This document shows positions 1,822 through 45,804 of a DNA stretch of 54,244 nt, piece after piece. The first letter of the stretch is position 1, and each line of letters opens with the position of its first letter. This DNA is from an uncultured Candidatus Saccharibacteria bacterium (GTDB taxonomy: Bacteria; Patescibacteriota; UBA1384; 2-12-FULL-50-11): the NCBI GenBank assembly GCA_964348645.1, contig CAYGDK010000001.1, positions 14,426 through 68,669 on the forward strand, read 5' to 3'. Made by a program: the position numbers and the translations under genes. The notes beneath the pieces are model-generated. The model had not been told where the DNA came from. It did not search any database and worked only from the letters and a program-made list of their open reading frames with translations.

Positions 1822-1895
1822 GCCCCCGTAGCTCAGTGGATTAGAGCGAGACGGTTCTAACGTCGAGGTCGTAGGTTCGAATCCTACCGGGGGTA
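1822..1895 (+). tRNA. tRNA-Arg (anticodon TCT)
   Basis: Hand-folded cloverleaf: acceptor GCCCCCG/CGGGGGT, D arm GCTC/GAGC, anticodon stem AGACG/CGTCG with loop GTTCTAA, T arm GTAGG-TTCGAAT-CCTAC. Confidence 0.85.
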
Positions 1896-1900
1896 CTACA

Positions 1901-1931
1901 CAAACGACCCGGTAATTTGCCGGGTCGTTTG
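1901..1931 (+). terminator. Perfect 12-bp stem-loop just after tRNA-Arg (no clear U-tract)
   Basis: CAAACGACCCGG-taatttg-CCGGGTCGTTTG. Confidence 0.45.
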
Positions 1932-1939
1932 TGTATGGT

Positions 1940-2034
1940 GTCGTAGGTGAGAACCTAAGGTTCGACAACGACCGAGCGGTAGCGAGGGAGGTGTACCGCA
2001 GTGAAGCGGAGGTAATCCTACCGGGTGTACTACA
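1940..2034 (+). repeat. Degenerate, interrupted second copy of the tRNA-Arg(TCT) 3' portion
   Basis: GTCGTAGGT (1940-1948) and GGTTCGA (1959-1965) match tRNA positions 1868-1880. AATCCTACCGGGTGTACTACA (2014-2034) matches 1880-1900 at 20/21, including 5 nt beyond the tRNA end. Confidence 0.8.
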
Positions 2035-2476
2035 GGAAGTGGCTAATAAGTTTTTCAGTATCGCCACCTAGGACGATTGGGTTTAGACCGATTATTTCTT
2101 CTAAGTAAGCAGACTCTTTGGGGATGTTGTTCAGAATAAAGATCGGCTTTTTCAAATAGAATGCTATCGTCATTTCCATCAAGACATTACCGCCAATGTA
2201 GTTTGGGATACCTCGCTTCTTCTCGTTTATTACTAATATCGCATCGCTCTTCTCTATCTCAGCGAAGTGCCCGTTCATTAGCGCGGTTTTCTTGCTGTAA
2301 TCGTTGGCGTTTGAAAACCAAGTCTTGTAATGACTGACCTCAAAGTCACCATTTTTCTTCATTATTTCGGCTGTGGCAGGTAGAAGCGTGGAGATGCCGT
2401 GTGTTTCTAGCTCGCCCTGGATTTCGACAGCTCTTTTATAGAAATCAGCGCTTGAACATAAGGTGACAGTTGTCAT
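2030..2476 (-). CDS. Nucleoside 2-deoxyribosyltransferase-superfamily protein (tentative)
   Basis: 148-aa ORF. The pattern SDAILVINEKKRGIPNYIGGNVLMEMTIAFYLKKPIFILN resembles the Rossmann-like deoxyribosyltransferase fold. Its TAG stop lies inside the tRNA-end repeat. Confidence 0.45.
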   Translation of the reverse strand: MTTVTLCSSADFYKRAVEIQGELETHGISTLLPATAEIMKKNGDFEVSHYKTWFSNANDYSKKTALMNGHFAEIEKSDAILVINEKKRGIPNYIGGNVLMEMTIAFYLKKPIFILNNIPKESAYLEEIIGLNPIVLGGDTEKLISHFL

Positions 2477-11055: not shown

Positions 11056-11088
11056 GGCGGCACAGCAATGTGCCGCCCAAACTTTTAC
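11056..11088 (+). terminator. Intrinsic terminator after the GreA-like gene
   Basis: GGGCGGCACA-gcaa-TGTGCCGCCC followed by AAACTTTT. Confidence 0.7.
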
Positions 11089-12788
11089 TCTCTAAATGGT
11101 GCAATGAACCTGATATTCCAGTAAAATACACAAAGGCGCCCGTAGCTCAGTGGATACTCGATCGAAGATCTCGTTCCACTTTGCCCAAGCGCACGCATGC
11201 GCCCGTAGCTCAGTGGATAGAGCGACTGACTTCGGATCAGTAGGCCAGGGGTTCGAATCCCTTCGGGCGCACCAAACTGGATGTTATTTTCTTGGAGTTC
11301 CAGAATAGCCTGATAGAACGGGCTTTTTGGGGTGTTCGAATAGCCCGGATAGCGATATTGCAGTCCGGAGGGGAATATCGAACACAACAGGGTACGCTTC
11401 TCTTCTAACGAACCATTTTCATAGGTTTCATTTAAGTCTTTGAACTTCGTGGCGATAAACTCGGTGATAGCCGCCAGACTATATTTTTCGATGACTGAAT
11501 CATTTTTAGCGATCTGGACGGTTTTTATTTTATCCTCCAGCATTTTATTCTGTTCTTTGAAGATCGAGTCTGAGTAAACTCCTGATAGGTTCTTCTCAAC
11601 TAAGGCCTGGCGCAATTCGTAGTACTTTTTCAGGTCTTCGTCGGCCTTCTCCCGCTTCTTCTGCAGGGAGCCGGTTCGTAGGTAGTAGGTGCGGCGTAGG
11701 AAGGCGTTCAACAATTCAATAGTCTTCGGCCGAAGGCTAACTGCTTGTAATTCTGTTGCCGTCTCTTCGTGCAGCTTCTCTTTGGCTATGGAATGACTAC
11801 CTTTACACCGTTTTTGACAACAATAGTAAGCGTAACGTTTGAGTTTACCCTTACTCCACCCTGCCGTTAGTGAGTGGCCGCAGACCGAGCATTTCACAAG
11901 ACGGCGCAGCGGGAACTCGGTGCTGTCAAAGTTTCTTCGCGCTAAAGCGGGAGCTAAGTTGCGATTTCGGCCGTCAAGGGCAGCCTGAACTTGATAGAAT
12001 TGTGCCTCCGTGATCATCGGCGTGTGTTGGCCTTGAGCTTCATCCCCGTATTTCCTTGATACCAGCTTTCCAACATAGAACTTGTTCCGAAAAATGTTAT
12101 TCAGAGTCTGCGGACGGATAGGATATTCTTTGTGCCCTTTGCGCTGCTCTCTAAGCCCCTTTTCATTTAGAAAGTCAGCCATCGCCTGGAGACTCTTAGT
12201 TCCGGTTGCCATCAGCTCCCACGCCTCCTTCATTAAGGAATATTTTTCCGGATCTTTAGCGATATAGCCGTTTTGATTTAGATAACCAATTGGTACGGTC
12301 CCGGTATGAAGACCAGCCAAGAAGCGAGCACGCATCCCATTCTTTGTTCGTTCGCTTCGAACGTCATTATCCATTTGAGCAAATCCGGCCAGCATTGTTT
12401 CGATAAACTTCTCAGTCGGCGTGTTGCCAGTTGGCTCGGTGGCCGAAATTAAGACAATATCTACTTCGGCTAATTTCTTACGAATTGCCAGGTAGTCGGC
12501 TGTCTGCCGCGACAGGCGGTCAAGCCGGTAAACGATAATCGCCCGGACATCTTTCTTGTTTTTTCGGCAGAATTCGAGCATTTCAATCAGTGTCGGCCGA
12601 CCCTTAATAGTCTTTGCTGACCGACCTTCTTCACGAAAAACTTTCAGTACCCCCAGCCCTCGCCGTTCGGCTTCTTTTACACAAATGTCTAATTGCGTTT
12701 CCAGTGAGTAGTTTTCAACTTGCTCTTCCGTCGAAACTCGTAAGTAAATTACGGCTTGTGATGACTTCCCTTCTTCGATTTGATGCAT
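11085..12788 (-). CDS. Large serine recombinase; the last ~63 codons of the ORF are antisense to tRNA-Arg and its partial copy
   Basis: Resolvase N-terminal domain (AVIYLRVSTEEQ), recombinase domain, Zn ribbon (CSVCGHS...YYCCQKRC) and a coiled-coil tail. The tail ...FGAPEGIRTPGLLIRSQSLYPLSYGR is a typical antisense-tRNA translation, so the native C-terminus probably lies near 11280. Confidence 0.85.
   Translation of the reverse strand: MHQIEEGKSSQAVIYLRVSTEEQVENYSLETQLDICVKEAERRGLGVLKVFREEGRSAKTIKGRPTLIEMLEFCRKNKKDVRAIIVYRLDRLSRQTADYLAIRKKLAEVDIVLISATEPTGNTPTEKFIETMLAGFAQMDNDVRSERTKNGMRARFLAGLHTGTVPIGYLNQNGYIAKDPEKYSLMKEAWELMATGTKSLQAMADFLNEKGLREQRKGHKEYPIRPQTLNNIFRNKFYVGKLVSRKYGDEAQGQHTPMITEAQFYQVQAALDGRNRNLAPALARRNFDSTEFPLRRLVKCSVCGHSLTAGWSKGKLKRYAYYCCQKRCKGSHSIAKEKLHEETATELQAVSLRPKTIELLNAFLRRTYYLRTGSLQKKREKADEDLKKYYELRQALVEKNLSGVYSDSIFKEQNKMLEDKIKTVQIAKNDSVIEKYSLAAITEFIATKFKDLNETYENGSLEEKRTLLCSIFPSGLQYRYPGYSNTPKSPFYQAILELQENNIQFGAPEGIRTPGLLIRSQSLYPLSYGRMRALGQSGTRSSIEYPLSYGRLCVFYWNIRFIAPFRE
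11136..11156 (+). repeat. Truncated duplicate of the first 21 nt of tRNA-Arg(TCG)
   Basis: GCGCCCGTAGCTCAGTGGATA is identical to 11199-11219 but is followed by unrelated sequence (CTCGATCG...). Confidence 0.9.
11199..11274 (+). tRNA. tRNA-Arg (anticodon TCG), CCA encoded
   Basis: GCGCCCG-TA-GCTC-AGTGGATA-GAGC-G-ACTGA-CTTCGGA-TCAGT-AGGCC-AGGGG-TTCGAAT-CCCTT-CGGGCGC-A-CCA. Confidence 0.88.
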
Positions 12789-13153: not shown

Positions 13154-13164
13154 TGCCCTCCTAC

Positions 13165-13201: not shown

Positions 13202-13364
13202 GTGTCAAGTGACTAAATTCACAATAAATTTAATCCTTAAGATTCGGACTATCGAACACTGCTAACTAGCCACAAATTGAGGAATATGGGGTTAATTTGC
13301 ACCGACTCAGCAGTGCCCGAGAGTCCTCGACTGGAGCTAAACCGAAGGCTCGACAGTGCCTCTC

Positions 13365-15755: not shown

Positions 15756-15786
15756 TGGATGTATCTTCCCTTCTATGCTAACTTAT

Positions 15787-15801
15787 TGCAACTAACTTGC
15801 A
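15787..15801. promoter_or_regulatory. Palindrome in the znuA/zur divergent promoter (candidate Zur box)
   Basis: TGCAA-CTAAC-TTGCA lies between the divergent starts at 15755 and 15831. Confidence 0.35.
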
Positions 15802-15830
15802 TTAACGATCATTATTGCTATCCTTAGCCC

Positions 15831-16223: not shown

Positions 16224-16255
16224 ACCCGACATTCTTATGTATAGCAATCGTATTG

Positions 16256-19270: not shown

Positions 19271-19745
19271 TGCCTCCTTTCTTAGCTAATTCAAACGAAA
19301 CAGTTAGCGACGGGTTCTCTAGTAGTTGGGTGAGTCTACCTTCTTCGGCAGGCCCCAGAATCGGAATGACTGGCTTTGGTTTCTTGACCTTCTGGTCAGC
19401 AGTAACGACCGGTTCTTTGGCGAGCGTCGCTTTCTCCCGTCCGGCCTCGTCATTCTTTGTAAAAACGTGGTAGCGCGGACGGCGAGTAAAGCGAAAGTAG
19501 ACACCGAACCAGTCGGCGACGATCTTACCGTTAATCCGAACTGCCAAGACCCCGAACACCAGAAACTGCAGAAGGATTAAGGAAAGTTTCAGCGGCCCGA
19601 GGTGCATCTTCGGAACGACCAAAACATACGTAACCGTGCTCGTCAGTAGCGGCACGATAAACAAAAGAATCTGGGCGAAGGTGAAGTTACCCGCTATCCG
19701 GTCTTCAACGGTCGTAATTTGGGCCGGAACGATTGTCGTTTTCAT
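19239..19745 (-). CDS. PrgI/VirB3-like small T4SS membrane protein
   Basis: N-terminus IVPAQITTVEDRIAGNFTFAQILLF plus two TM helices, located immediately upstream of VirB4. Confidence 0.65.
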   Translation of the reverse strand: MKTTIVPAQITTVEDRIAGNFTFAQILLFIVPLLTSTVTYVLVVPKMHLGPLKLSLILLQFLVFGVLAVRINGKIVADWFGVYFRFTRRPRYHVFTKNDEAGREKATLAKEPVVTADQKVKKPKPVIPILGPAEEGRLTQLLENPSLTVSFELAKKGGIDVSLTPIKD

Positions 19746-21010: not shown

Positions 21011-21013
21011 TTA

Positions 21014-21343
21014 CTATTTAGTGAATGCGGTTGATGCCAGCTCCGAGATAGCGTTACTGAGGACGAACGCCCCAATGCAGATTGCCAACCCCAGTCCGGA
21101 ATAAATAATCGTTCGCTTTGATCCTTCCAGACGCTCCGGATTGCCCGAGCTGGTAATGTAACCGATGCCACCCATAACGAAGAACCCGGCAGCTAATAGA
21201 CCGGCAAGGGTTACAAGTATCTGAATGGCGTTCTGAAGAAAGTTCTGGACTCTGGCGACATCGGCTGAAGCAGCCAAAGCTGGGGCGACCCAAACGAGAG
21301 ACAAAAGTATCGAAAGACCGATGGTGCGGAGGCGAGTGGGCAT
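21014..21343 (-). CDS. VirB2/TrbC-like pilin
   Basis: ATG 21343 has AAGGAG upstream. Features: signal peptide ending ALAAS, two hydrophobic helices, and the motif GYITSSGNPERLEGSKRTI. Confidence 0.6.
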   Translation of the reverse strand: MPTRLRTIGLSILLSLVWVAPALAASADVARVQNFLQNAIQILVTLAGLLAAGFFVMGGIGYITSSGNPERLEGSKRTIIYSGLGLAICIGAFVLSNAISELASTAFTK

Positions 21344-21454
21344 AAAAAACTCCTTTCCCCTCCACACGAGAACGATTCCTCGTCGCTCGTTGTTAATCTT
21401 TTAATTATCAATCAATTAACTATGGGTCGTTAATTTGCCACATTTCTATCATAG

Positions 21455-21507
21455 CTAGCATATGTTGTCAAATTATTCGCTCTCATAAATACCTTTACTA
21501 GCATATG
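21455..21507. promoter_or_regulatory. Two copies of CTAGCATATG, 43 bp apart, in the divergent pilin/T4CP promoter region
   Basis: Exact 10-mers at 21455-21464 and 21498-21507 in an AT-rich intergenic region. Confidence 0.4.
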
Positions 21508-21575
21508 CCTTTGTGATAAACCTACGGTAAATATAGGCCATTCCGTTATCGGAGGGGTAAGACGGAATACCAACA

Positions 21576-24122
21576 ATGAATGTATTCCCTTCCTTAAACT
21601 TCACTTCTGAGCTAGTTCGAGATTACAGCTGGCTTTTCTTGTACTCACTTATTGCGGTACTGGCACTTGTCTATGCGTTCCGGTTAATTCGCTTTTGGCA
21701 GAACTTGCGGCAAGAGTCGGTATTTTTGGAATTGGTGCCGCCCCGAAACACTGAAATTTCCAGCTTCACGACAACCCAATTGTTCCAAATTATTTCCGGC
21801 TTGCTACGCCAGCAGTCTTTCATTGATCGGCTGTTGCTTCGACAACTATCATCCTCCTTGGAAATCGCTTCACAAAAAGAAACCGGCATCCGCTACTTAC
21901 TGCGGCTACCTAAAGCTTTAGCCGAACCAGCTGAAAAGAGTCTGCGTGCCTACATACCCGGATTACAGATAAAAGAAGCGGGCGACTACCTACCTCTAAA
22001 GCTGCCATCAGGAGTTAAGGCTAAGGTTCTCGACTTTAAGCTGGCAGGGCACTTCGCGCTACCTCTCAATGAACAAATCGATCTCGGTAAGCACGATCCA
22101 CTGCTTTATTTGACCAGTAATATGACCCAGCTCAAAGAAAATGAAACGCTGGCCATTCAGCTGACTCTGCGGCCGCTAACCAGCTCCGCTCAACGCCGGA
22201 TTCGCCGCAACGCAGCTAAATTGCAGTTACCCGACGTCGTGTCACAGCGGGGCGTTGATAAGACGGCCGCTACCATTGAAGCGATTGTCCAGCTGGCCAT
22301 GACTCCGCTATTTGTCTTGGCCGAGTTCGTGACTGGACAGAAAACTTTAGTACCAGGCCGAAAGATTAGTCAGCACAAAAGTCAGGTAACGGCTCAAGAC
22401 ATGGATGATTCTGTTCGCCGTAAAGTCGACCAACAGTTGTTTGAAGGATCGCTCCGAGCCTTGTTAATTATTGAGTCGAAACAACTGCGCATCAGAGAGC
22501 GCGGATTGGTTTCGGCCTTCATGAGCTTTCTACACCCCGCTGGCCAGTCACTCTCTGCTAAAAGAAATCTGCTTTGGAAAGTCGGTAAACAGTTGCGGTG
22601 GTGGCACTATAAAAACCGGCTGAATAATCGGCAATTGATTTTGTCTTCTTCTGAAGTCGGCGCGCTCTACCATTTCCCGTATACCAAACTGTCGCGCACG
22701 GAAGATTTTAATAAGTTGAAGAGCCAAGAATTGCCAGCGCCGCTCTCACTCAAAAACAGAACTGATTTGGATGTTATCTTCGGTCACAACAACTACGGCA
22801 ATCGGTCAGTCGAGATTGGCCTAACGGATGATGAGCGCTCTAGGCATATGTATTTAATCGGCCAGACCGGGTCTGGTAAGTCGACGGCTATTTACCACAT
22901 GGCCAAAGGCGACATTCAAAAAGGCCGGGGCTTAGCCGTCATCGATCCGCACGGCGATCTAGCTGAAGATCTTTTATCGACGGTCCCGGAATCAAGAATT
23001 GGTGACTTAATCTATCTGAACCCGTTTGATATTAAGTACCCGATCGGTATTAACCTCCTTGAGCTGCCAGGTAATCTCGATGCGGATGAGCTTGAGCTAG
23101 AAAAAGAGTTAGCCTGCGAAAGCGTGGTGTCGGTCTTTCGGCGCATCTTTAATAAAGACGAGAATACTGATGCGCACCGGATTGAATATGTTCTTCGTAA
23201 CGCTATCCACACCGCCTTTACCGTTGAGGACGCGACGATCTTTACCGTTTACGAGCTACTGAATAACCCGACGTTTCAAAAGAAGGTTATCAGTAGGTTA
23301 AAAGATCAGAACCTGCGGCACTTTTGGAAAAACGAGTTCGGCAAGGCTGGTAACTATCAAATCGTGAAGATGGTTAGTGGCGTAACGGCTAAAATCGGGC
23401 GGCTGCTCTTTTCGCCGATGGCCAAGCGGATTCTTGAGCAGCCGAAATCGACAATCAATTATGAAGAAATCCTGAATTCCGAGAAGATTCTGATCTGCAA
23501 CTTGGCCGAAGGTAAACTCGGTGAAGATACTTCGCAGCTACTAGGTACGATGATGATTGCCAAAATCCATCAAGCCGCCTTGCGGCGGGCGAGAAAGGAA
23601 GCTTCCACTCGCAAGTCATTTTATTTATTCGTCGACGAATTTCAGAACTTCGCGACGTCCTCATTTACCCGGCTGTTATCCGGTGGCCGAAAATTTGGTT
23701 TGCGCATTACGATTGCCGAGCAATCAACGGCTCAGCAATCTGACCGTTCCACGGTCGAAGTTATTCTGGCCAATACCGGCGTGGTTGTCTGCTTCCGAAC
23801 CGCCAGTCCGGTCGACGAAGAGACGATGCTGGCCCAATTTGCCCCGTTTGTGAAACCCGGCGATATTCCGAACTTGCCACGACACCACTTTTATATGCGC
23901 CTGGCCGCCATTGAAGCCGAAGATCCGTTTTCCGGTGTTACGATTCCGGTCCCCACAACTAAAGATCCGGGAAATATTAACCGCTTAATCGAAGCCTCCC
24001 GGCAAAACTACGCTACTGTCTACAACCAATCCGTACCTACGGCTATCTCAAAAGAGGTTAATCAACCGTTAACAGATACGGTTGCCGTGAATATCGACAC
24101 GATCGAAACAGCGACTAAATGA
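21576..24122 (+). CDS. VirD4/TraG/TraD-type coupling protein (T4CP)
   Basis: 848 aa with N-terminal TM helices, Walker A GQTGSGKST and Walker B LFVDEFQNF. Confidence 0.8.
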   Translation: MNVFPSLNFTSELVRDYSWLFLYSLIAVLALVYAFRLIRFWQNLRQESVFLELVPPRNTEISSFTTTQLFQIISGLLRQQSFIDRLLLRQLSSSLEIASQKETGIRYLLRLPKALAEPAEKSLRAYIPGLQIKEAGDYLPLKLPSGVKAKVLDFKLAGHFALPLNEQIDLGKHDPLLYLTSNMTQLKENETLAIQLTLRPLTSSAQRRIRRNAAKLQLPDVVSQRGVDKTAATIEAIVQLAMTPLFVLAEFVTGQKTLVPGRKISQHKSQVTAQDMDDSVRRKVDQQLFEGSLRALLIIESKQLRIRERGLVSAFMSFLHPAGQSLSAKRNLLWKVGKQLRWWHYKNRLNNRQLILSSSEVGALYHFPYTKLSRTEDFNKLKSQELPAPLSLKNRTDLDVIFGHNNYGNRSVEIGLTDDERSRHMYLIGQTGSGKSTAIYHMAKGDIQKGRGLAVIDPHGDLAEDLLSTVPESRIGDLIYLNPFDIKYPIGINLLELPGNLDADELELEKELACESVVSVFRRIFNKDENTDAHRIEYVLRNAIHTAFTVEDATIFTVYELLNNPTFQKKVISRLKDQNLRHFWKNEFGKAGNYQIVKMVSGVTAKIGRLLFSPMAKRILEQPKSTINYEEILNSEKILICNLAEGKLGEDTSQLLGTMMIAKIHQAALRRARKEASTRKSFYLFVDEFQNFATSSFTRLLSGGRKFGLRITIAEQSTAQQSDRSTVEVILANTGVVVCFRTASPVDEETMLAQFAPFVKPGDIPNLPRHHFYMRLAAIEAEDPFSGVTIPVPTTKDPGNINRLIEASRQNYATVYNQSVPTAISKEVNQPLTDTVAVNIDTIETATK

Positions 24123-24146
24123 TGGAATCAGCCCTGATTCCATTTT
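24123..24146 (+). terminator. Intrinsic terminator after the T4CP gene
   Basis: TGGAATCAG-cc-CTGATTCCA followed by TTTT. Confidence 0.65.
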
Positions 24147-24155
24147 GCGCAAAAT
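24142..24155. promoter_or_regulatory. Perfect 14-nt palindrome ATTTTGCGCAAAAT (operator or oriT candidate)
   Basis: Seen directly. It lies between the T4CP gene and the replication-relaxation gene. Confidence 0.3.
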
Positions 24156-24234
24156 TACAGGTTAACGACCGGAAAATCACTACGCTTTCTTTATATATAC
24201 ACCCCTCTGCTTACTGCCTATCGCTTGCCCGCCG

Positions 24235-24978
24235 ATGAAACAGACACCCCTCTTAACTCTCAAACAACGCCATACCGACATACTGCTCTTATTATTCAGA
24301 TTCCGTTTCCTGACCCGTCCGCAAATTCAGCAACTCCTTACACTCAAAAACCATCAAAAAGTCCTCCGGTGGTTAAACGAACTAGCTAAATCTCAGTACG
24401 CGACTAAGTATCAGTCATCCGTCTCTTCAGTTGCTACATATTCGCTTGGTCGTGCCGGTCGCAAGTATTTGGTTAAGAACAAGCTGGTGAAGCAGGCGGT
24501 CCTACTCGATCGTGTCTGGCGAGAGTACGCCTACTCGTCCGGCTTTCGCGAAAAATGCCTTCTGATTGCCGACATGTATCTGCAATTAGTCGCCCGATCG
24601 GGAGGGGCGCTTCGCTTTTGGACGAAGTCCGAACTCCACGGTGTCGAGAATATGATCGAACCTGCGCCTGATGCCTATATTATTGTGAATGAAAAAAGCG
24701 AAGCGGATCGGATCTTTCTAGAAGTTCCAACCGTTGCCCGAACCAAAAATGTCATGGCCCAGATCGAGCGCTATTCGGAATACTTTTTCAGCCGGGAGTG
24801 GCAGGAACATACCGACAAACCGTTTCCAAAGATCGTTATCATCTGCCCGAACAGGAATGTTATTAAATCGACATTAAGTTTTATCAAAGAAGAATTCGCA
24901 GACGAGCCCGATCTCCGCTTTCGTGTAGCGAGCTCCGATCAGGCTCTGGAAGAAATACTGCCAAAGGAAAAGGCCTGA
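24235..24978 (+). CDS. Replication-relaxation family protein
   Basis: N-terminal LTLKQRHTDILLLLFRFRFLTRPQIQQLL winged-helix-like motif typical of this family, adjacent to the T4CP gene. Confidence 0.6.
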   Translation: MKQTPLLTLKQRHTDILLLLFRFRFLTRPQIQQLLTLKNHQKVLRWLNELAKSQYATKYQSSVSSVATYSLGRAGRKYLVKNKLVKQAVLLDRVWREYAYSSGFREKCLLIADMYLQLVARSGGALRFWTKSELHGVENMIEPAPDAYIIVNEKSEADRIFLEVPTVARTKNVMAQIERYSEYFFSREWQEHTDKPFPKIVIICPNRNVIKSTLSFIKEEFADEPDLRFRVASSDQALEEILPKEKA

Positions 24979-30255: not shown

Positions 30256-33069
30256 ATGTACAAAAATACTGAAGAAAAAACACGTCAAGAAATAATCGAC
30301 ATTCGACTCCAGCACGCTGGGTGGAATGTTAATGATATTTCACAAGTTACTTCAGAATTAGATATTTGGGTTGGCCTACCCGAAACCGTCTCAGAGCCTG
30401 AAAACCCATACCAGGGGCATCAATTTGCCGATTATGCTCTGCTTGGTGATGATGGCTATCCGCTTGCAGTGGTGGAGGCAAAGAAGACTTCTCGCGATGC
30501 ACGGATCGGACAGGAGCAAGCACGCCAATATGCGGAGAACATCAAGGGGGATTCTGATAAAGACATGCCGTTCGTTTTTTACACAAACGGACACGACATA
30601 TATTTCTGGGACACCGAAAAGTTCCCACCACGAAAGGTATACGGCTTTCCCACTAAGAAAGATCTTGAGCGGATGCTCTTTTTACGTAAAAACGAAAAAC
30701 CTCTTTCCCAAGAACTAATTAATAAAGATATTGCTGGCCGCCCTTACCAAATTGAGGCGATTCGCTCTGTTTTTGAAAATCTCGAAAAGGGCAAACGAAA
30801 GTCTTTGCTCGTTATGGCGACAGGAACCGGAAAAACAAGAACCTGTGCCGCGATGATCGACTCGCTCATGCGCGCCAACAAGGTACAAAAGATCCTCTTT
30901 CTTGTAGATCGTATCGCTCTACGGAACCAAGCCCTTGATGCATTCAAAGAGTATTTGCCGAATGCTCCTGTATGGCCAAAGGTGGGCGAGCACGACATCG
31001 CAACAGACAGACGTATTTACTGCGCGACGTACCCAACGATGCTTAATATCATCGAGGATAAGGATTGCCCACTCAGTCCGCATTTCTTCGACATGATCGT
31101 GGCCGATGAAAGTCACCGGTCAATCTACAATGTGTACAAAAATATTTTCGACTATTTTGACACGATCCAGCTCGGCCTTACTGCGACACCAAAAGATGCG
31201 GTTGAGCATAACACCTTTGGTCTCTTCGACTGCGAGGAGGGCGTCCCAACATTTGCCTACTCGTATGAAGAAGCAATTAACAACAAGCCACCTTACCTTT
31301 GTGATTTTGAGGTTCTAAAAGTAAAAACAAAGTTTCAAAAAGAAGGTATCCGAAAGAATAATATTTCTGTTTCAGAACAACAGAAACTTCTTGCTGATGG
31401 CAAGGAACCCGAGGAAATTAACTACGAGGGTAGTGAAATCGAAAAGCGAGTCTCCAATAAAGGCACAAACGCCTTGATCGTTCAGGAGTTCATGGAGAAC
31501 TGCATAAAGGATGAAAGCGGGACGCTGCCAGGGAAGACCGTATTCTTCGCCATGACCATGAAGCACGCCCGAAGGATCCAGGAAGTCTTCGACAATCTCT
31601 ACCCTGAGCACAAAGGTAATCTTGCGAAGGTTATAGTTTCTGATGACTCACGGGTTTATGGAAAAGGCGGTCTACTCGATCAGTTCATCAACAAAGATTT
31701 TCCTCGCATTGCCATCAGCGTAGATATGCTTGATACCGGTATTGATGTACGCGAGCTAGTAAATCTCGTATTCGCCAAGCCGGTCTTTTCCTACACAAAG
31801 TTCTGGCAAATGATTGGCCGAGGGACACGACTTTTGGAGCCAAACAAAATCAAGCCTTGGTGCAAAGAAAAAGATAAGTTCCTAATCATCGACTGCTGGG
31901 ACAACTTTGAGTATTTTCAAATGAACCCAACCGGTAAAATTGATAAGCCATCTAAACCGGTTCCTGTTCGTTTGTTTGAAACGAAATTAGAGAAACTCAG
32001 AGTGGCCCAAGATCAGAATCTCACTCAGGTTGTAGATACTACCGTTCAAAAAATTAAAGAAGATATTGAGAAGCTGCCACAAAACAACGTCGTAGTCTTA
32101 GATGCTCAAAGCAAAATCAGTAAGCTAGACGAAACTTTCTGGCACAAGCTCACCGATGATAAGATGCTCTTCCTTCAAAAAGAGATCGCGCCACTAATGC
32201 GAACGCGCACTGGCGAAGACTACAAGGCTATGGGCTTTGAGATTAGAGTAATGAACTACTCAGCTACTAAGCTTCTTGGAACCGTGGAGTCAGCCGAGAA
32301 AGTACAAACCCTTCGGGACGTAATTATCGAAATGGTCTCTGACCTTCCACTTACGATTAATATCGTTGCAAAGGAAAGGGAACTTATCGAGAGCATCCTC
32401 AACAGCGCCTATCTCGAAGAAGCGGACGAGGATGAGCTCAATACAGTTATTGAAAAGATTGCCCCACTCATGAAGTACCGAGAGGAAGGCATTAAGCCTG
32501 ACCAGGACGAACACAACTTCAAAGATCAAACGAGCGAGAAAGAATATATAAAATTTGGGCCAGCACACGAGCGGATCACAGTACTCAAATATCGAGAAAA
32601 AGTTGAGGCGCTCGTAAAAAGTCTGGAAGAAGATAACCCTATTCTGCAAAAGATTAAACAGGGCGAAGATATCTCGCATGAAGAGGTAGAGCAGCTTGCT
32701 ACCACTCTTGGCGGATACGAGCCGTACCCAACTGAAGAGAACCTCCAAAAAGCATACGATGCTCGTAAGGTAGCTTTCCTTGACCTTATCAAGCACATCA
32801 TGGGGATGGGCGGACTGGTGACATTCCCGGAAAAGGTATCCGAAGCCTTTGCCGAATTTATCGCCGATCATAATACCCTAGCCCCAAACCAGATTCAGTT
32901 CCTGATCGTGCTTCGCGACTTTATCATCAACAATGGGGATCTGACCAAAAAAGACCTTGTGCAAGAGCCATTCACCAAATTGCACACACGAGGCTTCCTG
33001 GGACTCTTCACTCCACAACTTCAGACAGAGATTCTGACCCTCACTAATAGAGTTCTGCACCATGCTTAA
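30256..33069 (+). CDS. hsdR: Type I restriction enzyme R subunit
   Basis: 937 aa with an N-terminal HSDR_N-like region, helicase motifs VMATGTGKTRT and IVADESHRS, and a C-terminal EcoEI-R-like tail. Confidence 0.92.
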   Translation: MYKNTEEKTRQEIIDIRLQHAGWNVNDISQVTSELDIWVGLPETVSEPENPYQGHQFADYALLGDDGYPLAVVEAKKTSRDARIGQEQARQYAENIKGDSDKDMPFVFYTNGHDIYFWDTEKFPPRKVYGFPTKKDLERMLFLRKNEKPLSQELINKDIAGRPYQIEAIRSVFENLEKGKRKSLLVMATGTGKTRTCAAMIDSLMRANKVQKILFLVDRIALRNQALDAFKEYLPNAPVWPKVGEHDIATDRRIYCATYPTMLNIIEDKDCPLSPHFFDMIVADESHRSIYNVYKNIFDYFDTIQLGLTATPKDAVEHNTFGLFDCEEGVPTFAYSYEEAINNKPPYLCDFEVLKVKTKFQKEGIRKNNISVSEQQKLLADGKEPEEINYEGSEIEKRVSNKGTNALIVQEFMENCIKDESGTLPGKTVFFAMTMKHARRIQEVFDNLYPEHKGNLAKVIVSDDSRVYGKGGLLDQFINKDFPRIAISVDMLDTGIDVRELVNLVFAKPVFSYTKFWQMIGRGTRLLEPNKIKPWCKEKDKFLIIDCWDNFEYFQMNPTGKIDKPSKPVPVRLFETKLEKLRVAQDQNLTQVVDTTVQKIKEDIEKLPQNNVVVLDAQSKISKLDETFWHKLTDDKMLFLQKEIAPLMRTRTGEDYKAMGFEIRVMNYSATKLLGTVESAEKVQTLRDVIIEMVSDLPLTINIVAKERELIESILNSAYLEEADEDELNTVIEKIAPLMKYREEGIKPDQDEHNFKDQTSEKEYIKFGPAHERITVLKYREKVEALVKSLEEDNPILQKIKQGEDISHEEVEQLATTLGGYEPYPTEENLQKAYDARKVAFLDLIKHIMGMGGLVTFPEKVSEAFAEFIADHNTLAPNQIQFLIVLRDFIINNGDLTKKDLVQEPFTKLHTRGFLGLFTPQLQTEILTLTNRVLHHA

Positions 33070-34588
33070 TACCAAGCTGAAATCATCAATCGGTCGCCTT
33101 TGGGATAAGTTCTGGAGTGGTGGTATCTCAAACCCCCTTACCGCTATTGAGCAAATCTCGTACCTGCTCTTCATGAAACGATTAGATGAGATGGATATCA
33201 AAAAGAAACAGGACGCGGAGTTTACCGGCGAAGCGTACAAGCCGGTATTCCATGATGAATATGAGACGTTTCGCTGGAGCCATTTTAGGCATATGGAGGG
33301 TGGGGAGATGCTAACCCATATTCAAACAAAGGTTTTCCCGTTTCTAAAAACACTCGGCAAAGAAGAGAGCCCTTTCGCAAAACACATGGGTAATGCCGTA
33401 TTTATTATTTCCAAACCTTCTCTCCTCGTAGAGGCAGTAGGTATCATCGACGAGATATTTGAGGAAATTTCTACCCAGGACACAAAAGGCCAGGGTTTTC
33501 AGGATACCCAGGGAGACATCTATGAATACCTTCTCTCAGAAATCACGAGCGCTGGTAAGTTGGGCCAGTTCCGTACACCGCGCCATATTATCCAGCTCAT
33601 CTGCGAACTAGTAGATCCTAAGCTTGGCGACACTATCTGCGATCCTGCCTGTGGTACGGGCGGGTTTCTCCTCGGTGCCTACCAACACATTGTCACGGCT
33701 TACACGAACAAAGAGCACCAAAAGACCGATGAAAATGGCTTAACTCGCGGAGACCTAGGAGATAAACTGACCGATGAGCGTCAGTGGCACCACCTCAAAG
33801 AGAAAACCTTCTATGGTTACGATATGGACGAAAGCATGGTCCGTATCGGCCTGATGAACTTAATGATGCACGGGATTTCTAGTCCTAATATCGAGCAGAA
33901 AGATACTCTTTCTAAGAAATATGATGAGGACGGACGCTATGACGTAATCATGGCTAACCCCCCTTTTAAGGGAAGTATCGACAAGGGTGACATTAATGAG
34001 TCGCTTTCACTCAATACCACCAAGACTGAGCTGCTGTTTATCAACAAAATTATTCAGTCTCTAAAAATTGGTGGCAGAGCAGGCGTGATAGTACCTGACG
34101 GCGTTCTCTTTGGTTCGAGCAATGCACATAAGCAGGCTCGTCAGATGCTGCTTAATGACTGCGAACTTCAGGGAGTCATTTCTATGCCGAGCGGCGTGTT
34201 CAAGCCATACGCCGGGGTCAGCACCGCTATTCTCATCTTCGTAAAGGGTGGAGAAACTGAAAAAGTTTGGTTCTATGACATGCAGTCAGATGGCTATAGC
34301 CTAGACGACAAGCGCACCAAGATAAATGGCGGCGGAGACTTGCCTGACATTGTTGATAAATGGAAAACCAGAAAAGAACAAACTGAGAATAAGCTAAACA
34401 GCAAGTTTTTCTACGTCGATAAGAAAGAGATCGAAGACAACGGCTTTGACCTGAGTATTAACCGCTACAAAGTTACCGATCACGAAGATGTGAGCTACGA
34501 GGATCCGGAAGTGATTCTCGAAAAAATTGAGACACTAGAGCAAGAAATTCTTACAGGACTCAGCGAAATTAAAAATTTAGAAGTATGA
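33062..34588 (+). CDS. hsdM: Type I R-M N6-adenine DNA methyltransferase subunit
   Basis: N-terminal HsdM_N motif, SAM motif DPACGTGGFL, catalytic NPPFKG. Overlaps hsdR by 8 nt. Confidence 0.93.
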   Translation: MLNTKLKSSIGRLWDKFWSGGISNPLTAIEQISYLLFMKRLDEMDIKKKQDAEFTGEAYKPVFHDEYETFRWSHFRHMEGGEMLTHIQTKVFPFLKTLGKEESPFAKHMGNAVFIISKPSLLVEAVGIIDEIFEEISTQDTKGQGFQDTQGDIYEYLLSEITSAGKLGQFRTPRHIIQLICELVDPKLGDTICDPACGTGGFLLGAYQHIVTAYTNKEHQKTDENGLTRGDLGDKLTDERQWHHLKEKTFYGYDMDESMVRIGLMNLMMHGISSPNIEQKDTLSKKYDEDGRYDVIMANPPFKGSIDKGDINESLSLNTTKTELLFINKIIQSLKIGGRAGVIVPDGVLFGSSNAHKQARQMLLNDCELQGVISMPSGVFKPYAGVSTAILIFVKGGETEKVWFYDMQSDGYSLDDKRTKINGGGDLPDIVDKWKTRKEQTENKLNSKFFYVDKKEIEDNGFDLSINRYKVTDHEDVSYEDPEVILEKIETLEQEILTGLSEIKNLEV

Positions 34589-35754
34589 AGGAAGTAAAAA
34601 TCGGAACCATTGCTAAGGTTTTCAACGGCTACGCGTTTAACAGTACTGACTACGTCAAAGAGGGATACCGGGTAATAAGGATCACAAATGTTCAGAAGGG
34701 ATTTATTACAAATTCCAGTCGAAAATTTATAGACCTTAAAAATAAATTATTGGAACGATTTATTTTGAAGCAAGGCGATATATTAATCTCATTAACCGGG
34801 AATGTTGGAAGAGTTGGGAAAGTTACAAATGAAATATTGCCCGCAGTACTCAATCAACGAGTTGGTAAGATAGTAATTACTTCTAAGGACGTAGTGCCCG
34901 ACTATCTTTTTCATATATTGAATAGCAATATTTTTGAAACCAGGTTGATTGAAAAATCAAAAGGCATTGCACAAAAGAATATCGGATCATCTGACATTGA
35001 AAGTTTGTTAATCCCCCTCCCGTCACTTGAAAAGCAAAAACATATTGTGAATGTTCTTGACCAGGCTAATAGTCTCCGAGAAAAACGTAAGGAAGCAATT
35101 GCGTTATTAGACGAATATTTGAAGTCGATATTTTTAAACTTGTTCGGCGACCCTGTTAATAACCCAAAAGCGTGGCCTAGTGGGAAGGTACAGGATTTGG
35201 TCTCTGATGTTAGATATGGAACAAGCGCCGTTGCTAGTTCAGAGGGAGAATACCCCTATCTGAGAATGAATAACATCACATACTCGGGAGAGCTTGATAT
35301 CTCAAAGTTAAAATTCATAAATCTTTCTGATGGTGAAAAGGAAAAGTATCTTGCAAAAAAGGGAGACTTACTATTTAACAGAACAAACAGCAAGGAGTTA
35401 GTCGGCAAGACAACTGTCTATAACCTAGATAAGCCTATGGCTATTGCTGGCTATTTGATTCGAGCTAGGACAAATGAGTTAGCTGTCCCGGAATATATTT
35501 CCGGTTACCTAAATTCAAAGCATGGTAAAAAAACTTTAGAAGCAATGTGTAAAAGTATTGTTGGTATGGCAAATATAAATGCGAAAGAGTTGCAGAGTAT
35601 TAAGATACTAATCCCACCTATTGATTTACAAAAGAAATACGCAATGACTGTTGAAAAGGCCGAAGCCCTTAAACGAAAAATGCTTACTCAACTTAAAGAA
35701 ATCGATAGTCAGTTTCACGCTGCCGTGCAAAAGTCATTTAGATATAACGCCTAA
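34585..35754 (+). CDS. hsdS: Type I R-M specificity subunit
   Basis: 389 aa with two target-recognition-domain halves separated by the conserved helix LPSLEKQKHIV...; the second half ends PPIDLQKKYA. ATGA overlap with hsdM; very AT-rich. Confidence 0.9.
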   Translation: MKEVKIGTIAKVFNGYAFNSTDYVKEGYRVIRITNVQKGFITNSSRKFIDLKNKLLERFILKQGDILISLTGNVGRVGKVTNEILPAVLNQRVGKIVITSKDVVPDYLFHILNSNIFETRLIEKSKGIAQKNIGSSDIESLLIPLPSLEKQKHIVNVLDQANSLREKRKEAIALLDEYLKSIFLNLFGDPVNNPKAWPSGKVQDLVSDVRYGTSAVASSEGEYPYLRMNNITYSGELDISKLKFINLSDGEKEKYLAKKGDLLFNRTNSKELVGKTTVYNLDKPMAIAGYLIRARTNELAVPEYISGYLNSKHGKKTLEAMCKSIVGMANINAKELQSIKILIPPIDLQKKYAMTVEKAEALKRKMLTQLKEIDSQFHAAVQKSFRYNA

Positions 35755-35766: not shown

Positions 35767-37098
35767 TTATGGGCGAATTCTTACGAGGAATGGACCACTT
35801 CTTGCTATCCAATGGCTATCCCTTACCACGAAAGCCTCAATCCAATGTGTGCCAATATAAAGTGAGGATTCTTTGCGAGTATCACCCTGGCCGCTGACCA
35901 CAAATCCTCCGCGCAGACCACTTACTTGCCTAGCATGATCACCCGTGTTTACCACCTGCCAATGAATTGTGTAGGGCTGTGGGACGTCGGTTTGGGCCGT
36001 GAAGTATAAGTTCCAGTTTTGCTCAACAATATCATTTGAGCTAAAACTTGATTCCGGGCCCTCCCATTTACGACGGAACCCCTTCTTGGGTGCCTGCATT
36101 CTTTTAATCGCTCGTACCGTTGCTTTATAACTGCTCGATAGGTGCGACCAAGGAACTGGTTGCCGATGAGAGTAGTCTGCCAATTCGGGCACTTCTGCCT
36201 CAACGATTGACCTGTTTTTTGCCTCAGGGAAGTCATCCCCTAACAATTTACGCCACAAGACAGCGCTTTGTATTTCACTTTCTTCCGCAAATGCCTGCTC
36301 GGCCACTACCGCTGCTGCCAATACTTCCCGCCGGAAATCTTTGTAATGAGCAGTCTCCCAGCGTTCAGCAAAATCTTCCTCTGACATCACGGGGTTTGGT
36401 ACCGGAGGCGGCGAATCTGGGTGTTGCTCAAGCATTCCAGCAATACCGGACAAAGTAATCGTTAAGTTATCGGCATCAGTTTCATCGTTGAGAAACGACA
36501 TCGAAGCTATAACTTGAAGTGTTACAGATTTTATCGCCTGATTAACATTTTGGTTGAAATCCCGCCAGCGCTTGAGCATCTTCACGGTCCGTAAAAAGTT
36601 GTCTCCCTGGTTTTTGCACCACTCCGTATAGGCTTTTGGATTACTAAGCACCCAACCATCACTACGCTGCGGTATTTCAATAAACCCTTCTGTTTCACTC
36701 AACCGTGCGGGAACAAGATCAACGTGGAACCCACCAATTTCTTCATCAGCATATTGCAGCCGAACGCACGACTCTTTACGTGGGTTGGTCACTACCATGG
36801 TTTTGTACGTACCGTTCTCTAGTAGGGCATTTTCCAAGATAGTAAGCGCTTCTAAAGCTGTTTGCCTCGCTTCGGCACAGAGCACAACTAGATCAACATC
36901 ATACTCACCATCTTCGAGTGGCTTGACAGACGTCTCGTTAGCGTAAGAGCCTTGAAGAAAGAAGTCATCTTTAGTAATCCCGAAGTAGTTTGAAAGATAG
37001 CCTGTCAAACCGCCTACGGCATCGTTGATTCGCTCGTGCTGCTTGTCTCCGAGCGAAATTTTTTCAACAAATTCGCTGAACGACGAATTTAATTTCAT
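35767..37098 (-). CDS. SMODS/CD-NTase-like nucleotidyltransferase with a long beta-rich C-terminal extension (possibly AGS-C-like)
   Basis: ATG 37098 has GGAGG upstream. Motifs FFLQGSYANETSVKP, DVDLVVL and GGFHVDLVPAR. The C-terminal ~200 aa end WQVVNTGDHARQVSGLRGGF...THWIEAFVV. The track ORF start at 37179 looks spurious. Confidence 0.7.
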   Translation of the reverse strand: MKLNSSFSEFVEKISLGDKQHERINDAVGGLTGYLSNYFGITKDDFFLQGSYANETSVKPLEDGEYDVDLVVLCAEARQTALEALTILENALLENGTYKTMVVTNPRKESCVRLQYADEEIGGFHVDLVPARLSETEGFIEIPQRSDGWVLSNPKAYTEWCKNQGDNFLRTVKMLKRWRDFNQNVNQAIKSVTLQVIASMSFLNDETDADNLTITLSGIAGMLEQHPDSPPPVPNPVMSEEDFAERWETAHYKDFRREVLAAAVVAEQAFAEESEIQSAVLWRKLLGDDFPEAKNRSIVEAEVPELADYSHRQPVPWSHLSSSYKATVRAIKRMQAPKKGFRRKWEGPESSFSSNDIVEQNWNLYFTAQTDVPQPYTIHWQVVNTGDHARQVSGLRGGFVVSGQGDTRKESSLYIGTHWIEAFVVRDSHWIARSGPFLVRIRP

Positions 37099-37676
37099 TT
37101 CTTTTTCCTCCAATGAGACCAGTAGATATTGCGAAGCATGAGCAGGAACCGCGGCGCTCGCCACCACGACAACTGCCATCGCACATCACGCAGAAAACGC
37201 CGAGACTCTTTGTCGATCTCGTCAAAAGTAGCAATTTCTTTTGAACGTTCCGTGGATGACAGTGCTGTCTTTAAACTTTTCCAACGAGGAGTAAGCGGAC
37301 GCTGCCAGGCATCAATTATTGGATCTTCAAGTGAGGCCTTAATCTTTGTCACTAGTTTTTGGTAGGCTCGTCCTAGCCACAGGGACTCGGTATAAATCCA
37401 GCCCTGGTTGTAAAGAATCTTTTCCTGAAGTTCGTGAAATCGATCTACTAGCACATCAGCTTCTCTTTTGGTTTTACCCCGTCGGCGAATTCGGTAGAGC
37501 ATCTCTCCCCAGGCAAGAATATCTTGATAAGCTTGGGCATATAACGTTCTACGTCGTTGTCTCTTTTCGCTTGAATATGCCGCGTAAGCCACAATTAAAG
37601 CAACCAAAATCGTACCGACGATTGTCAAAATTGGTGATAAATTTAGTAGCTGCTTTATATTTGGCATTGCCGTCAT
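37095..37676 (-). CDS. Single-pass membrane protein, unknown family, translationally coupled to the NTase
   Basis: The stop overlaps the NTase ATG (ATGA). One TM (ILTIVGTILVALIVAYAAY) is followed by a basic helical region. Start is uncertain: ATG 37676, ATG 37667 or TTG 37724, none with a good SD. Confidence 0.55.
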   Translation of the reverse strand: MTAMPNIKQLLNLSPILTIVGTILVALIVAYAAYSSEKRQRRRTLYAQAYQDILAWGEMLYRIRRRGKTKREADVLVDRFHELQEKILYNQGWIYTESLWLGRAYQKLVTKIKASLEDPIIDAWQRPLTPRWKSLKTALSSTERSKEIATFDEIDKESRRFLRDVRWQLSWWRAPRFLLMLRNIYWSHWRKKK

Positions 37677-45039: not shown

Positions 45040-45173
45040 TAGGGCAATCTTAACAGTCACACTGTTGTAATAACAGGGGCAAACTTCTTTCTAAATTTCG
45101 ACTCAACGGATATAATTATGATCGTCTAAGGGGCTACTGCGAGCCGAAAGCGAGTAGGGACCTCAAAAAGTTT

Positions 45174-45245
45174 GGGCCATTAGTTCAGCGGCAGAACAAC
45201 GGACTCTTAATCCGTGTGTCGGTGGTTCGATCCCACCATGGCCCA
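45174..45245 (+). tRNA. tRNA-Lys (anticodon CTT)
   Basis: GGGCCAT-TA-GTTC-AGCGGCA-GAAC-A-ACGGA-CTCTTAA-TCCGT-GTGTC-GGTGG-TTCGATC-CCACC-ATGGCCC-A. Confidence 0.88.
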
Positions 45246-45246
45246 C

Positions 45247-45281
45247 AAGAAAATCCCGGTCTTTATGGCCGGGTTTTTCTT
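45247..45281 (+). terminator. Intrinsic terminator just after tRNA-Lys
   Basis: AAGAAAATCCCGG...CCGGGTTTTTCTT, a stem with a T5 tract. Confidence 0.65.
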
Positions 45282-45377
45282 GTGCCTAAGGTTGGGCGAC
45301 CCCAGGCCATTAGGCCGAGGTTCGACTTCGAGCAGCTCAGTAGAGCTGCGAGTAGTGGAGTCGCGCTAGCGACGGAA

Positions 45378-45394
45378 ATCCCACCATGGCCCAC
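45378..45394 (+). repeat. Second copy of the tRNA-Lys 3' end
   Basis: ATCCCACCATGGCCCAC is identical to 45230-45246. Confidence 0.85.
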
Positions 45395-45804
45395 TAGAGC
45401 AGGTCAGTTAGTATCTTTGCGACGTCGCCTATTGTTTGATACCGACATACTTTGAATTCCGGGGCTCCATCTACTAAAGCTGAAAGTCGGCGACCTTCTT
45501 GCTCTCGATAGAGGCAGATCACTTTCTTGCCCCACTCCTCGGCCCAGCCAAGTTCCATTCCGACGCCCAAGCTCGGCGTCGTCACTTCTGCGACAATTAC
45601 ATCGGCTTCGCGAACCCAATCTTTATCTCTATTGCGAATAAACGTGTTTGTTAGGTTCTCGCCGTCCGTCGTCAGATTCTTGCTGCCAAAGTGCTCACTG
45701 AGGACGAGACCGTGCTTCTTTAGCTCTGCAATAATGCTCGAGTATATTTCCTGATCATCTCTGCCGCTCCGGATCGACGCGGCAAAATAAATTTTCTTAT
45801 GCAT
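45394..45804 (-). CDS. 2'-deoxynucleoside 5'-phosphate N-hydrolase / nucleoside 2-deoxyribosyltransferase family (DNPH1/Rcl-like)
   Basis: MHKKIYFAASIRSGRDDQEIY...VLSEH...ADVIVAEVTTPSLGVGMELGWA. I prefer ATG 45804. The TAG stop directly abuts the tRNA-end repeat. Confidence 0.7.
   Translation of the reverse strand: MHKKIYFAASIRSGRDDQEIYSSIIAELKKHGLVLSEHFGSKNLTTDGENLTNTFIRNRDKDWVREADVIVAEVTTPSLGVGMELGWAEEWGKKVICLYREQEGRRLSALVDGAPEFKVCRYQTIGDVAKILTDLL

Follow-up and report, generated by a model that had tools for sequence, protein, structure and literature searches.

The DNA analysed here, referred to as the window, is a stretch of 54,244 nucleotides from an uncultured Candidatus Saccharibacteria bacterium (GenBank assembly GCA_964348645.1, contig CAYGDK010000001.1, positions 14,426 to 68,669 of the forward strand). 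Its RluB-like gene has its nearest relatives in metagenome-assembled genomes of Patescibacteria and Saccharimonadales. The focus is a short intergenic segment directly behind the gene for tRNA-Lys(CTT), in which the 3' end of the tRNA recurs on the far side of a terminator and a set of hairpins. An initial annotation had described this layout together with a comparable one at tRNA-Arg(TCT), and had proposed that the protein gene next to each might travel with the attachment (att) site. At tRNA-Lys, every element of the described layout was recovered at its position. The features of the locus, which is read in the sense of the tRNA, are the following.

45174..45246, plus strand: tRNA-Lys(CTT) gene (ARAGORN; Rfam tRNA model, 68 bits), CCA not encoded
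45230..45246, plus strand: proximal copy of the direct repeat, from A58 of the T-loop to one base beyond the discriminator, inside the working tRNA
45244..45284, no strand assigned: intrinsic terminator, potentially two-way, a hairpin with 16-nt arms, flanked by an A-run and, opposite, by a T-run (inverted repeat and terminator scan)
45285..45318, plus strand: 5' part of the Lys unit, small variable hairpins (RNAalifold)
45319..45360, plus strand: long hairpin P2, GGTTCGAC-TT-CGAGC-(apical hairpin)-GCGAG-TAGTGGAG, with tandem G.A / A.G pairs
45361..45374, plus strand: short hairpin P3, GTCGC-GCTA-GCGAC
45378..45394, plus strand: orphan tRNA 3' end, the distal copy of the repeat, adjoining the old downstream flank

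A tRNA-end repeat encloses a non-coding insert

The repeated sequence, ATCCCACCATGGCCCAC, constitutes the last 17 nt of tRNA-Lys and is present in exactly two copies in the window (45230-45246 and 45378-45394), a situation found in 0 of 100 shuffles. Allowing one mismatch lengthens the repeat to 21 nt (45230-45250 against 45378-45398). The 131 bp between the copies contain no open reading frame (ORF) of substance and consist of the terminator (arms at 45244-45259 and 45269-45284, followed by a T-run) and hairpins, including GCAGCTC-agta-GAGCTGC at 45333-45350 and GTCGC-gcta-GCGAC at 45361-45374. Inspection of the sequence also places CCTAAGGTT at 45285-45293 and GGTTCGAC at 45319-45326. CCTAAGGTT alone is weak evidence, given that two copies arise in 8 of 100 shuffles and that it is not kept in orthologous units. 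The ends of the Lys unit read AAGAAAATCC... and ...GGCCCAC, and the distal repeat overlaps by one base with the stop codon (45394-45396, minus strand) of an Rcl-like gene. The region 45247-45394 is a non-coding insert of about 150 bases in which a terminator is followed by a structured core (about 95 nt) and by the 17-nt orphan tRNA-Lys 3' end. The distal repeat marks the old tRNA end beside the old flank. Comparable tRNA-end repeats are absent from the remaining three tRNAs of the window outside the Lys and Arg(TCT) loci.

A sister unit lies behind tRNA-Arg(TCT), with the following parts.

1822..1896, plus strand: tRNA-Arg(TCT) gene (ARAGORN, Rfam)
1897..2033, plus strand: sister module as a whole (covariance model R1, 64.9 bits)
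1897-1935: terminator of the sister module, followed by its 5' part at 1936-1958
1959-1995: core of the sister module, GGTTCGAC and a hairpin with two tandem G.A pairs
1996-2009: P3 hairpin of the sister module, followed by the orphan tRNA-Arg 3' end at 2014-2033

Within the tRNA-Arg(TCT) locus, AATCCTACCGGGGGTACTAC is located at 1880-1899 and again at 2014-2033 with one mismatch; zero shuffles contained two matches. The duplicated block starts at A58 of the T-loop in both tRNA-Lys and tRNA-Arg. The earlier claim that the repeats are specific to each tRNA is confirmed, with 17/17 nt matching at Lys and 19/20 nt at Arg. The inserts are also alike, as had been proposed, and have in common a core of GGTTCGAC, a G.A-rich hairpin and a second hairpin, while their tRNA-derived ends differ.

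Occupancy of the tRNA-Lys site varies among relatives

Among related Saccharimonadales, the syntenic Lys site contains 0, 1 or 2 modules. The site is empty in L190, where 10 nt and no terminator separate the tRNA end from the Rcl stop codon. L191 has an inverted tRNA and no insert, and L002 has no unit either. A single unit of one type is present in the window, L050, L052 and L053, and a single unit of a different type in L189. In L001 the two types stand one behind the other, both with a terminator and a tRNA-end copy of their own, bringing ATCCCACCATGGCCCAC to three copies in total; the unit of L189 is of the type that adjoins the tRNA in L001. A terminator is found at this position in every unit-bearing locus and none in the empty L190; the terminator thus comes with the module. 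In L050 the orphan copy has decayed to ATCCCACC and in L053 to ATCCCACCATAGCCCTT, with the core intact in both. Orphan copies never include CCA and match the gene plus 1-4 flanking bases, indicating that the duplication was copied from DNA and not from a mature tRNA. For the same reasons, the idea that the orphan copy is a primer-binding site for reverse transcription was rejected.

At the Arg site of L186, tRNA-Arg(TCT) converges on the homologous protein gene across a spacer of 66 nt with no repeat. This spacer (1261-1326) has GGTTCGAT..GAGAC..GCGAG and may represent a decayed unit rather than a never-occupied site; R1 gives no match to it.

The core is conserved in structure

Both units of the window were aligned with those of the related loci L001, L050, L052, L053 and L189. 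The plan of the unit is the same throughout the alignment, with a terminator, a variable 5' part, P2, P3 and the orphan tRNA end. The foot of P2 is formed by the conserved GGTTCGAC and its middle by tandem G.A / A.G pairs (CGAGC...GCGAG). The core exists in two forms. A single G.A tandem with a variable apical hairpin characterizes the Lys unit of the window as well as L001, L050, L053 and L189. Two G.A tandems with a GNNA loop, CGACYGAGC-GNNA-GCGAGGGAG, are found in the Arg unit of the window and in the orthologous Lys unit of L052. The P2 fold has a z-score of -3.1. Double-sided changes affect six pairs of P2, two pairs of P3 and 10 pairs over the whole structure. The observed covariation of the whole structure was reached in 0 of 500 shuffles, and sliding the partner columns by 1-3 positions removes the signal. 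The row for the closing helix P1 in this count is invalid (the structure string was two columns off), and P1 counts rest on RNAalifold. P1 is predicted to pair GGCCGAGGT with the orphan ACCATGGCC and is only moderately kept among orthologues; GGCCGAGG(T) in the 5' part is the P1 strand able to pair with the orphan tRNA end. The structure is asymmetric between strands. The G.A pairs form on the tRNA-sense strand only, G.U pairs outnumber A.C pairs 8 to 1, and the double-G.A hairpin as well as a related hairpin in the tRNA-Lys leader fold on the plus strand with no folding on the minus strand.

Resemblances to known RNA motifs were rejected or dropped. GGTTCGAC is not a T-loop, as its bases form the foot of P2 with a C-G to U-A covariation in L052. 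CCTAAG as a receptor for a GAAA tetraloop is not kept in orthologues, and the G.A core lacks the defining bulge or core bases of a K-turn, a hammerhead or domain V of a group II intron. No family of Rfam 15 covers the unit, either at gathering thresholds or at E-values up to 10, and no description of the module was found in the literature. Matches of R1 to the full unit are confined to these Saccharimonadales loci in about 650 kb searched. As far as the Rfam and literature searches show, the module family and its G.A hairpin are undescribed.

A related hairpin precedes tRNA-Lys

45130..45164, plus strand: G.A-core leader hairpin, GGGGCTACTG-CGAGC-CGAAA-GCGAG-TAGGGACCTC (sequence inspection)

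The leader hairpin is located between the -10 box and the tRNA. It contains the tandem G.A core, and its outer stem mimics the acceptor stem of the tRNA. Copy numbers vary from none (L001, L190) over one (window, L052, L053) to two (L050, 4640-4725). The hairpins of L052, L053 and the tRNA-proximal one of L050 start with GGGCCATT, the exact first 8 nt of the tRNA, and the distal hairpin of L050 starts with GGGCCACT. In starting with a copy of the tRNA 5' end, these leader hairpins mirror the 3' units. Across the Saccharimonadales-related loci, 12 of the 20 CGAGC...GCGAG hairpins are at most 200 nt from a tRNA; such flanks account for 7% of the sequence. Some of the loci are orthologous, and the counts are not independent. 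In L003, the hairpin motif is found antisense in the leader of a tRNA-Val.

The G.A hairpin recurs in viruses and soil metagenomes

A 22-mer of the double-G.A form served as the query for the motif in other genomes. It was found in nine IMG/VR contigs. Six are circular Rep/Cap genomes of 2.4-2.8 kb from CRESS (circular Rep-encoding single-stranded DNA) viruses (L054-L057, L061, L062), and the remaining three are phage-like, high in GC and carry G.A tandems in periodic series of up to four. The CRESS genomes share a near-identical block of about 60 nt, composed of GG(G/T)TCGACGACCGAGCGTTAGCGAGGGAGG and a G-rich second hairpin. In four of them, the TTGG(G/T)TCGACGACCGAGCGTTAGCGAGGGAGG block follows the TAGTATTAC origin loop on the same strand at a distance of about 35 nt, and the block could be a single-strand structural element. 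A generic pattern gave 18 matches in viral contigs, none beside a tRNA, which were judged to be chance matches. The pattern for the single-G.A form of the core had no match in viral contigs.

The 22-mer is also present in at least 120 metagenome contigs. Most of them are high-GC and from soil, and in these the motif belongs to a dispersed or tandem intergenic repeat. In this high-GC repeat family, the motif has no orientation bias relative to flanking genes. In L105 (1090-1215, minus strand), which belongs to a low-GC (0.41) bacterium, three consecutive G.A hairpins in sense orientation occupy the leader of a 16S rRNA gene, about 100 nt ahead of the gene. The motif abuts a tRNA 3' end in antisense in L070 and L135. 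The latter, an unrelated high-GC contig, carries at 4598-4790 a tRNA-Ser(CGA), a 73-nt insert with two antisense hairpins of the G.A type and then CGAATCCCACCCTCTCCGCCA, which repeats the tRNA end exactly over 21 nt. The G.A hairpin is a widely reused module, for which both common descent and convergence on a very stable fold are possible.

Further occurrences were recorded among the metagenome contigs. The dispersed and tandem intergenic repeat of the soil contigs L063-L142 (e.g., L084, L088, L097, L110), gcgagCGACCGAGCGCCAGCGAGGGAGcggccag..cggcctgcgtggccggggaacgcaatga, appears to be an undescribed family resembling repetitive extragenic palindromes (REP). In L073, L125 and L131, a G.A hairpin identical over 23 nt to the Arg core of the window is flanked by a 10-nt direct repeat, CTGCGTCCAT. 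These three contigs encode protein kinases, carry long poly-G runs and may be of eukaryotic or giant virus origin. The GGAG arm in L131 is expanded as a tetranucleotide repeat.

The neighbouring protein genes are resident

45394..45804, minus strand: Rcl/DNPH1-like gene (PF05014, E 4.5e-15), resident neighbour outside the insert
2030..2476, minus strand: gene for a 148-aa protein with a predicted nucleoside-deoxyribosyltransferase/YtoQ-like fold, resident neighbour of the sister module
L001 7648-7956, L053 1956-2285 and L189 about 1960-2270: ORF of 102-109 aa at the distal repeat

The initial annotation had placed both neighbouring genes in the nucleoside-deoxyribosyltransferase superfamily. 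For the Rcl-like protein (45397-45804), this is supported by a match to PF05014 of 56.3 bits, above the cut-off of 28.8. The 148-aa protein (2033-2476) reaches 15.3 bits against the same model, below the cut-off (E 0.023), and has no sequence match in the PDB. Its AlphaFold model (pLDDT 93.2) has YtoQ and nucleoside 2'-deoxyribosyltransferases as top PDB matches (E 9e-5 to 1e-3, TM 0.5-0.6; the best at E about 1e-4 and TM 0.52-0.59), and the predicted structure supports the same fold. It is a member of a conserved Saccharimonadales family.

The proposal that the gene travels with the att site found no support. Both genes lie outside the repeats and keep their place without a unit. The order RluB-Rcl-tRNA-Lys-VTT is kept in L050 and L052 and the order RluB-Rcl-tRNA-Lys in L053 and L189, and the Rcl gene set is retained in L190 without an insert and in L191 with an inverted tRNA and no insert. 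The inserts of L001 are present without Rcl. Distant Rcl homologues are part of a Thy1-Tmk-Rcl-SHMT-dUTPase operon with no tRNA. Homologues of the 148-aa protein adjoin NUDIX or heliorhodopsin genes, or a tRNA-Arg(TCT) without a repeat (L186). Both neighbours are resident genes and not cargo. The initial annotation had also taken repeats missing from relatives with the same gene content as a sign of simple local duplication. Such relatives were found, but the cause of the difference appears to be an insertion polymorphism of a small module. Common to both loci is a tRNA converging tightly on a protein gene that has no terminator of its own, a setting in which an insert with a two-way terminator would likely be tolerated or favoured.

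The ORF of 102-109 aa is variable and has no Pfam match. It is followed by a hairpin of its own and separates the orphan tRNA end from Rcl (or DUF305).

An element-like region elsewhere in the window

11088..12788, minus strand: large serine recombinase, its ORF overlapping tRNA-Arg(TCG) at 11199-11274

The region from 11088 to 24975, possibly extending to about 39 kb, resembles an integrative conjugative element (ICE). Its content includes a VirB4/TraG-like ATPase, PrgI, two pilins of a type IV secretion system, a coupling protein and a Replic_Relax protein. Beyond the ICE-like genes are a type I restriction-modification system (30256-35751) and an SMODS/AGS_C cyclase (35770-37179). The GC content falls to 0.41-0.46 around 30-38 kb of the window.

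Origin of the tRNA-end units

We suggest that a miniature non-coding module inserted at tRNA-Lys, duplicating the 3' segment of the tRNA, and that it now provides a bidirectional terminator; we assign this reading a probability of about 0.5. The feature is more than a local duplication and is best described as a tRNA-end-duplicating insertion that is miniature, gene-free and built of hairpins. The decay of the orphan end in L050 and L053 with a conserved core was counted in favour of this origin, as were the presence of zero, one or two copies at a single syntenic site and the tRNA-Ser layout of L135, with its 21-nt repeat, 73-nt insert and the same hairpin motif in an unrelated contig. Further support comes from the compensatory changes in P2 and P3, the core common to both loci of the window, the clustering of G.A hairpins near tRNAs, the DNA-derived orphan copies without CCA, the terminator that accompanies each unit, and the unchanged position of the neighbouring genes where a unit is missing. 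An event at the DNA level would have placed the module inside the tRNA 3' segment. Either the target stretch from A58 to the gene end was duplicated on insertion, or the incoming DNA might have carried a matching copy and entered by a single crossover. The tRNA would have stayed intact, and its old end would have stayed joined to the old flank. The same module family might have inserted likewise at tRNA-Arg(TCT), and a related G.A hairpin might have done the mirror image at the 5' end of tRNA-Lys. The module now probably separates two converging transcription units and terminates both. It may since have become a domesticated insulator, in which the stems sequester the orphan fragment of the tRNA.

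Several considerations weigh against an insertion of this kind. The 30 window ORFs scanned with Pfam include no tyrosine recombinase, no RAYT (REP-associated tyrosine transposase) and no reverse transcriptase. The sole recombinase among them is the large serine recombinase, 33 kb away, and serine recombinases do not create repeats of 17-21 nt. No free or donor form was found. The 17-nt tRNA-end sequences in IMG/VR are located only inside phage tRNA genes, apart from the uninformative L198 (a high-GC contig without a tRNA) and L210 (a tRNA array not called by ARAGORN). BLAST searches with the unit against phage and plasmid collections gave nothing. A circle of about 150 bp is an awkward substrate for recombination, and the repeat lengths differ between the 3' end (17-21 nt) and the 5' end (8-9 nt), unlike the product of one simple transposase. 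The strong conservation of structure in the tRNA sense would equally suit a functional RNA, and loss by recombination between repeats could generate the 0/1/2 pattern without repeated gain.

The main rival is a functional RNA on the sense strand, produced by read-through of the terminator or as part of the tRNA precursor. The leader hairpin and the trailer unit would be mimics of the acceptor stem with G.A caps, serving pre-tRNA processing or stability, or acting as a decoy for enzymes that recognize acceptor stems. Such a role is conceivable, though doubtful. The restriction of the tandem G.A pairs to the tRNA-sense strand, the excess of G.U over A.C pairs, and the folding of the double-G.A and leader hairpins on the plus strand alone are all as expected of an RNA. 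The leader hairpin is situated between the -10 box and the tRNA and hence is part of the precursor, the 16S rRNA leader of L105 has its three hairpins in sense orientation, and P1 joins the orphan tRNA end to a complementary stretch in the unit, giving a helix similar to the acceptor and T-arm. However, a strong terminator separates the tRNA from the unit, no promoter-like site was found, and Rfam has no matching family. The unit is dispensable, being missing from L190, L191 and L002, and P1 is poorly conserved in L052, in L189 and in one unit (u1) of L001. The motif is antisense to the tRNA in L003, L070 and L135, and an RNA is also disfavoured by the high-GC repeat family, where the motif has no preferred orientation relative to flanking genes.

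Alternatively, a classical integrative element that targets tRNAs through a tyrosine integrase might have left the unit behind as a scar; the repeats would be attL and attR, and all genes between them would have been deleted later, sparing only the att-adjacent sequences. Repeats of such length from the T-loop to the tRNA end are typical of integrases that target tRNA genes, and the repeats observed here, of 17-21 nt, agree with this in position as well as in length. A new tRNA 3' end and a terminator are provided by the tRNA-proximal part, as is usual for integrative elements, and the tandem units of L001 resemble tandem accretion at an att site. We nevertheless regard a scar as unlikely. At two tRNAs and in at least six lineages, separate deletions would all have had to stop at remnants of almost the same length (131-137 bp) that retain homologous cores, and compensatory changes show selection of the remnant for its hairpin structure, which is unexpected of integrase arm sites. 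No integrase gene or pseudogene was found at any locus, the scanned ORFs of the window lack a tyrosine recombinase, and viral contigs contain no matching attP. The unit would be a tRNA pseudogene if the tRNA gene, or its 3' part with the terminator, had been duplicated locally in tandem and the extra copy had decayed. Besides a D-arm-like hairpin, the Lys unit does hold GGCCATTAG, equal to tRNA positions 2-10; in the Arg unit, GTCGTAGGT upstream of the core equals tRNA positions 45-54; and each unit of L001 is followed by its own terminator in the manner of a gene. A pseudogene is still very unlikely, as ARAGORN and the Rfam tRNA model (E up to 10) detect only the genuine tRNA and nothing in the unit, and as the sequence of the D-arm-like hairpin is not conserved among orthologues but merely covaries. 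The Arg and Lys units further share a core found in neither tRNA, and the same core motif is present in unrelated genomes. A nucleoside-deoxyribosyltransferase-like gene cassette moving with the tRNA-end repeat would account for the single fold class of the neighbours and for both stop codons touching the orphan repeat. Genes without units (L190, L186), units without Rcl (L001), the position of the genes outside the repeats and homologues elsewhere without a tRNA make such a cassette hardly credible.

Relation to known systems

The proposed insertion module shares individual traits with several known systems. Integrative elements and genomic islands that target tRNA genes by P4-like tyrosine integrases likewise have a 17-21-nt repeat of the 3' segment starting in the T-loop, leave the tRNA intact, provide a new end with a terminator and are polymorphic among relatives. 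The module differs in having 131-137 bp between the repeats, no integrase, no cargo, conserved hairpins and one core at two tRNAs. CIMEs are cis-mobilisable, att-flanked elements without recombination genes known from Streptococcus. Together with tandem accretion at att sites, they resemble the module in the att-like repeats at the borders, the lack of an own recombinase and the formation of tandem arrays as in L001. CIMEs are kilobases long and visibly derived from ICEs, whereas the module has about 150 bp and no known parent element.

Short structured non-coding intergenic sequences are also typical of REP and REPIN (REP doublets forming hairpins) sequences, of miniature inverted-repeat transposable elements (MITEs) and of the arrays of Neisseria intergenic mosaic elements (NIMEs) with dRS3, and the G.A motif itself is part of high-copy repeats in other bacteria. 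The module and repeat arrays resemble NIMEs. In contrast to REP and REPIN sequences with their many dispersed copies, R1 finds just two units in the 54-kb window, its three G.A hairpins are all linked to tRNAs, and a GTAG motif is missing. No RAYT was seen among the 30 ORFs scanned. Unlike MITEs, the module has no terminal inverted repeats, and its duplications have no fixed short length (17-21 nt on the 3' side, 8-9 nt on the 5' side). Integron attC sites (also in cassettes lacking an ORF) and the attP of CTX phage, a folded single strand, are similar in being more conserved in structure than in sequence, strand-specific and arrayed by a fixed site, and in having a stem that rebuilds the target duplex, here P1. 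The module lacks the R''/R' core sites (RYYYAAC / GTTRRRY), no integron integrase is present among the ORFs scanned, and the repeats are 17-21 nt of a tRNA, which limits the comparison to an analogy. Based on this analogy, the units might be mini-cassettes of a new, protein-less class, whose insertion at the 3' or 5' end of a tRNA gene duplicates the terminal tRNA segment (A58 to the gene end on the 3' side, the first 8-9 nt on the 5' side). Such cassettes would act as folded single strands, with the orphan-segment stem rebuilding the target duplex and the G.A hairpin as a recognition module shared with small single-stranded DNA viruses, on whose virion strand it is located close to the origin, and with intergenic repeats of many phyla. 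We consider so specific a scheme speculative and distinctly unlikely.

Implications

The tandem-G.A hairpin is found in tRNA flanks of the candidate phyla radiation (CPR), in soil repeats, in a 16S rRNA leader and in CRESS intergenic regions, and is an uncharacterised module that merits description as a family. If the modules are or were mobile, the duplication of the tRNA 3' end, a classical mark of genomic islands, can arise from an element of about 150 bp that consists only of structure and a terminator, and repeats of tRNA ends should not automatically be taken for the borders of islands with adjoining cargo. In the very compact genomes of CPR bacteria, the module would be the only terminator between the tRNA and the converging gene.

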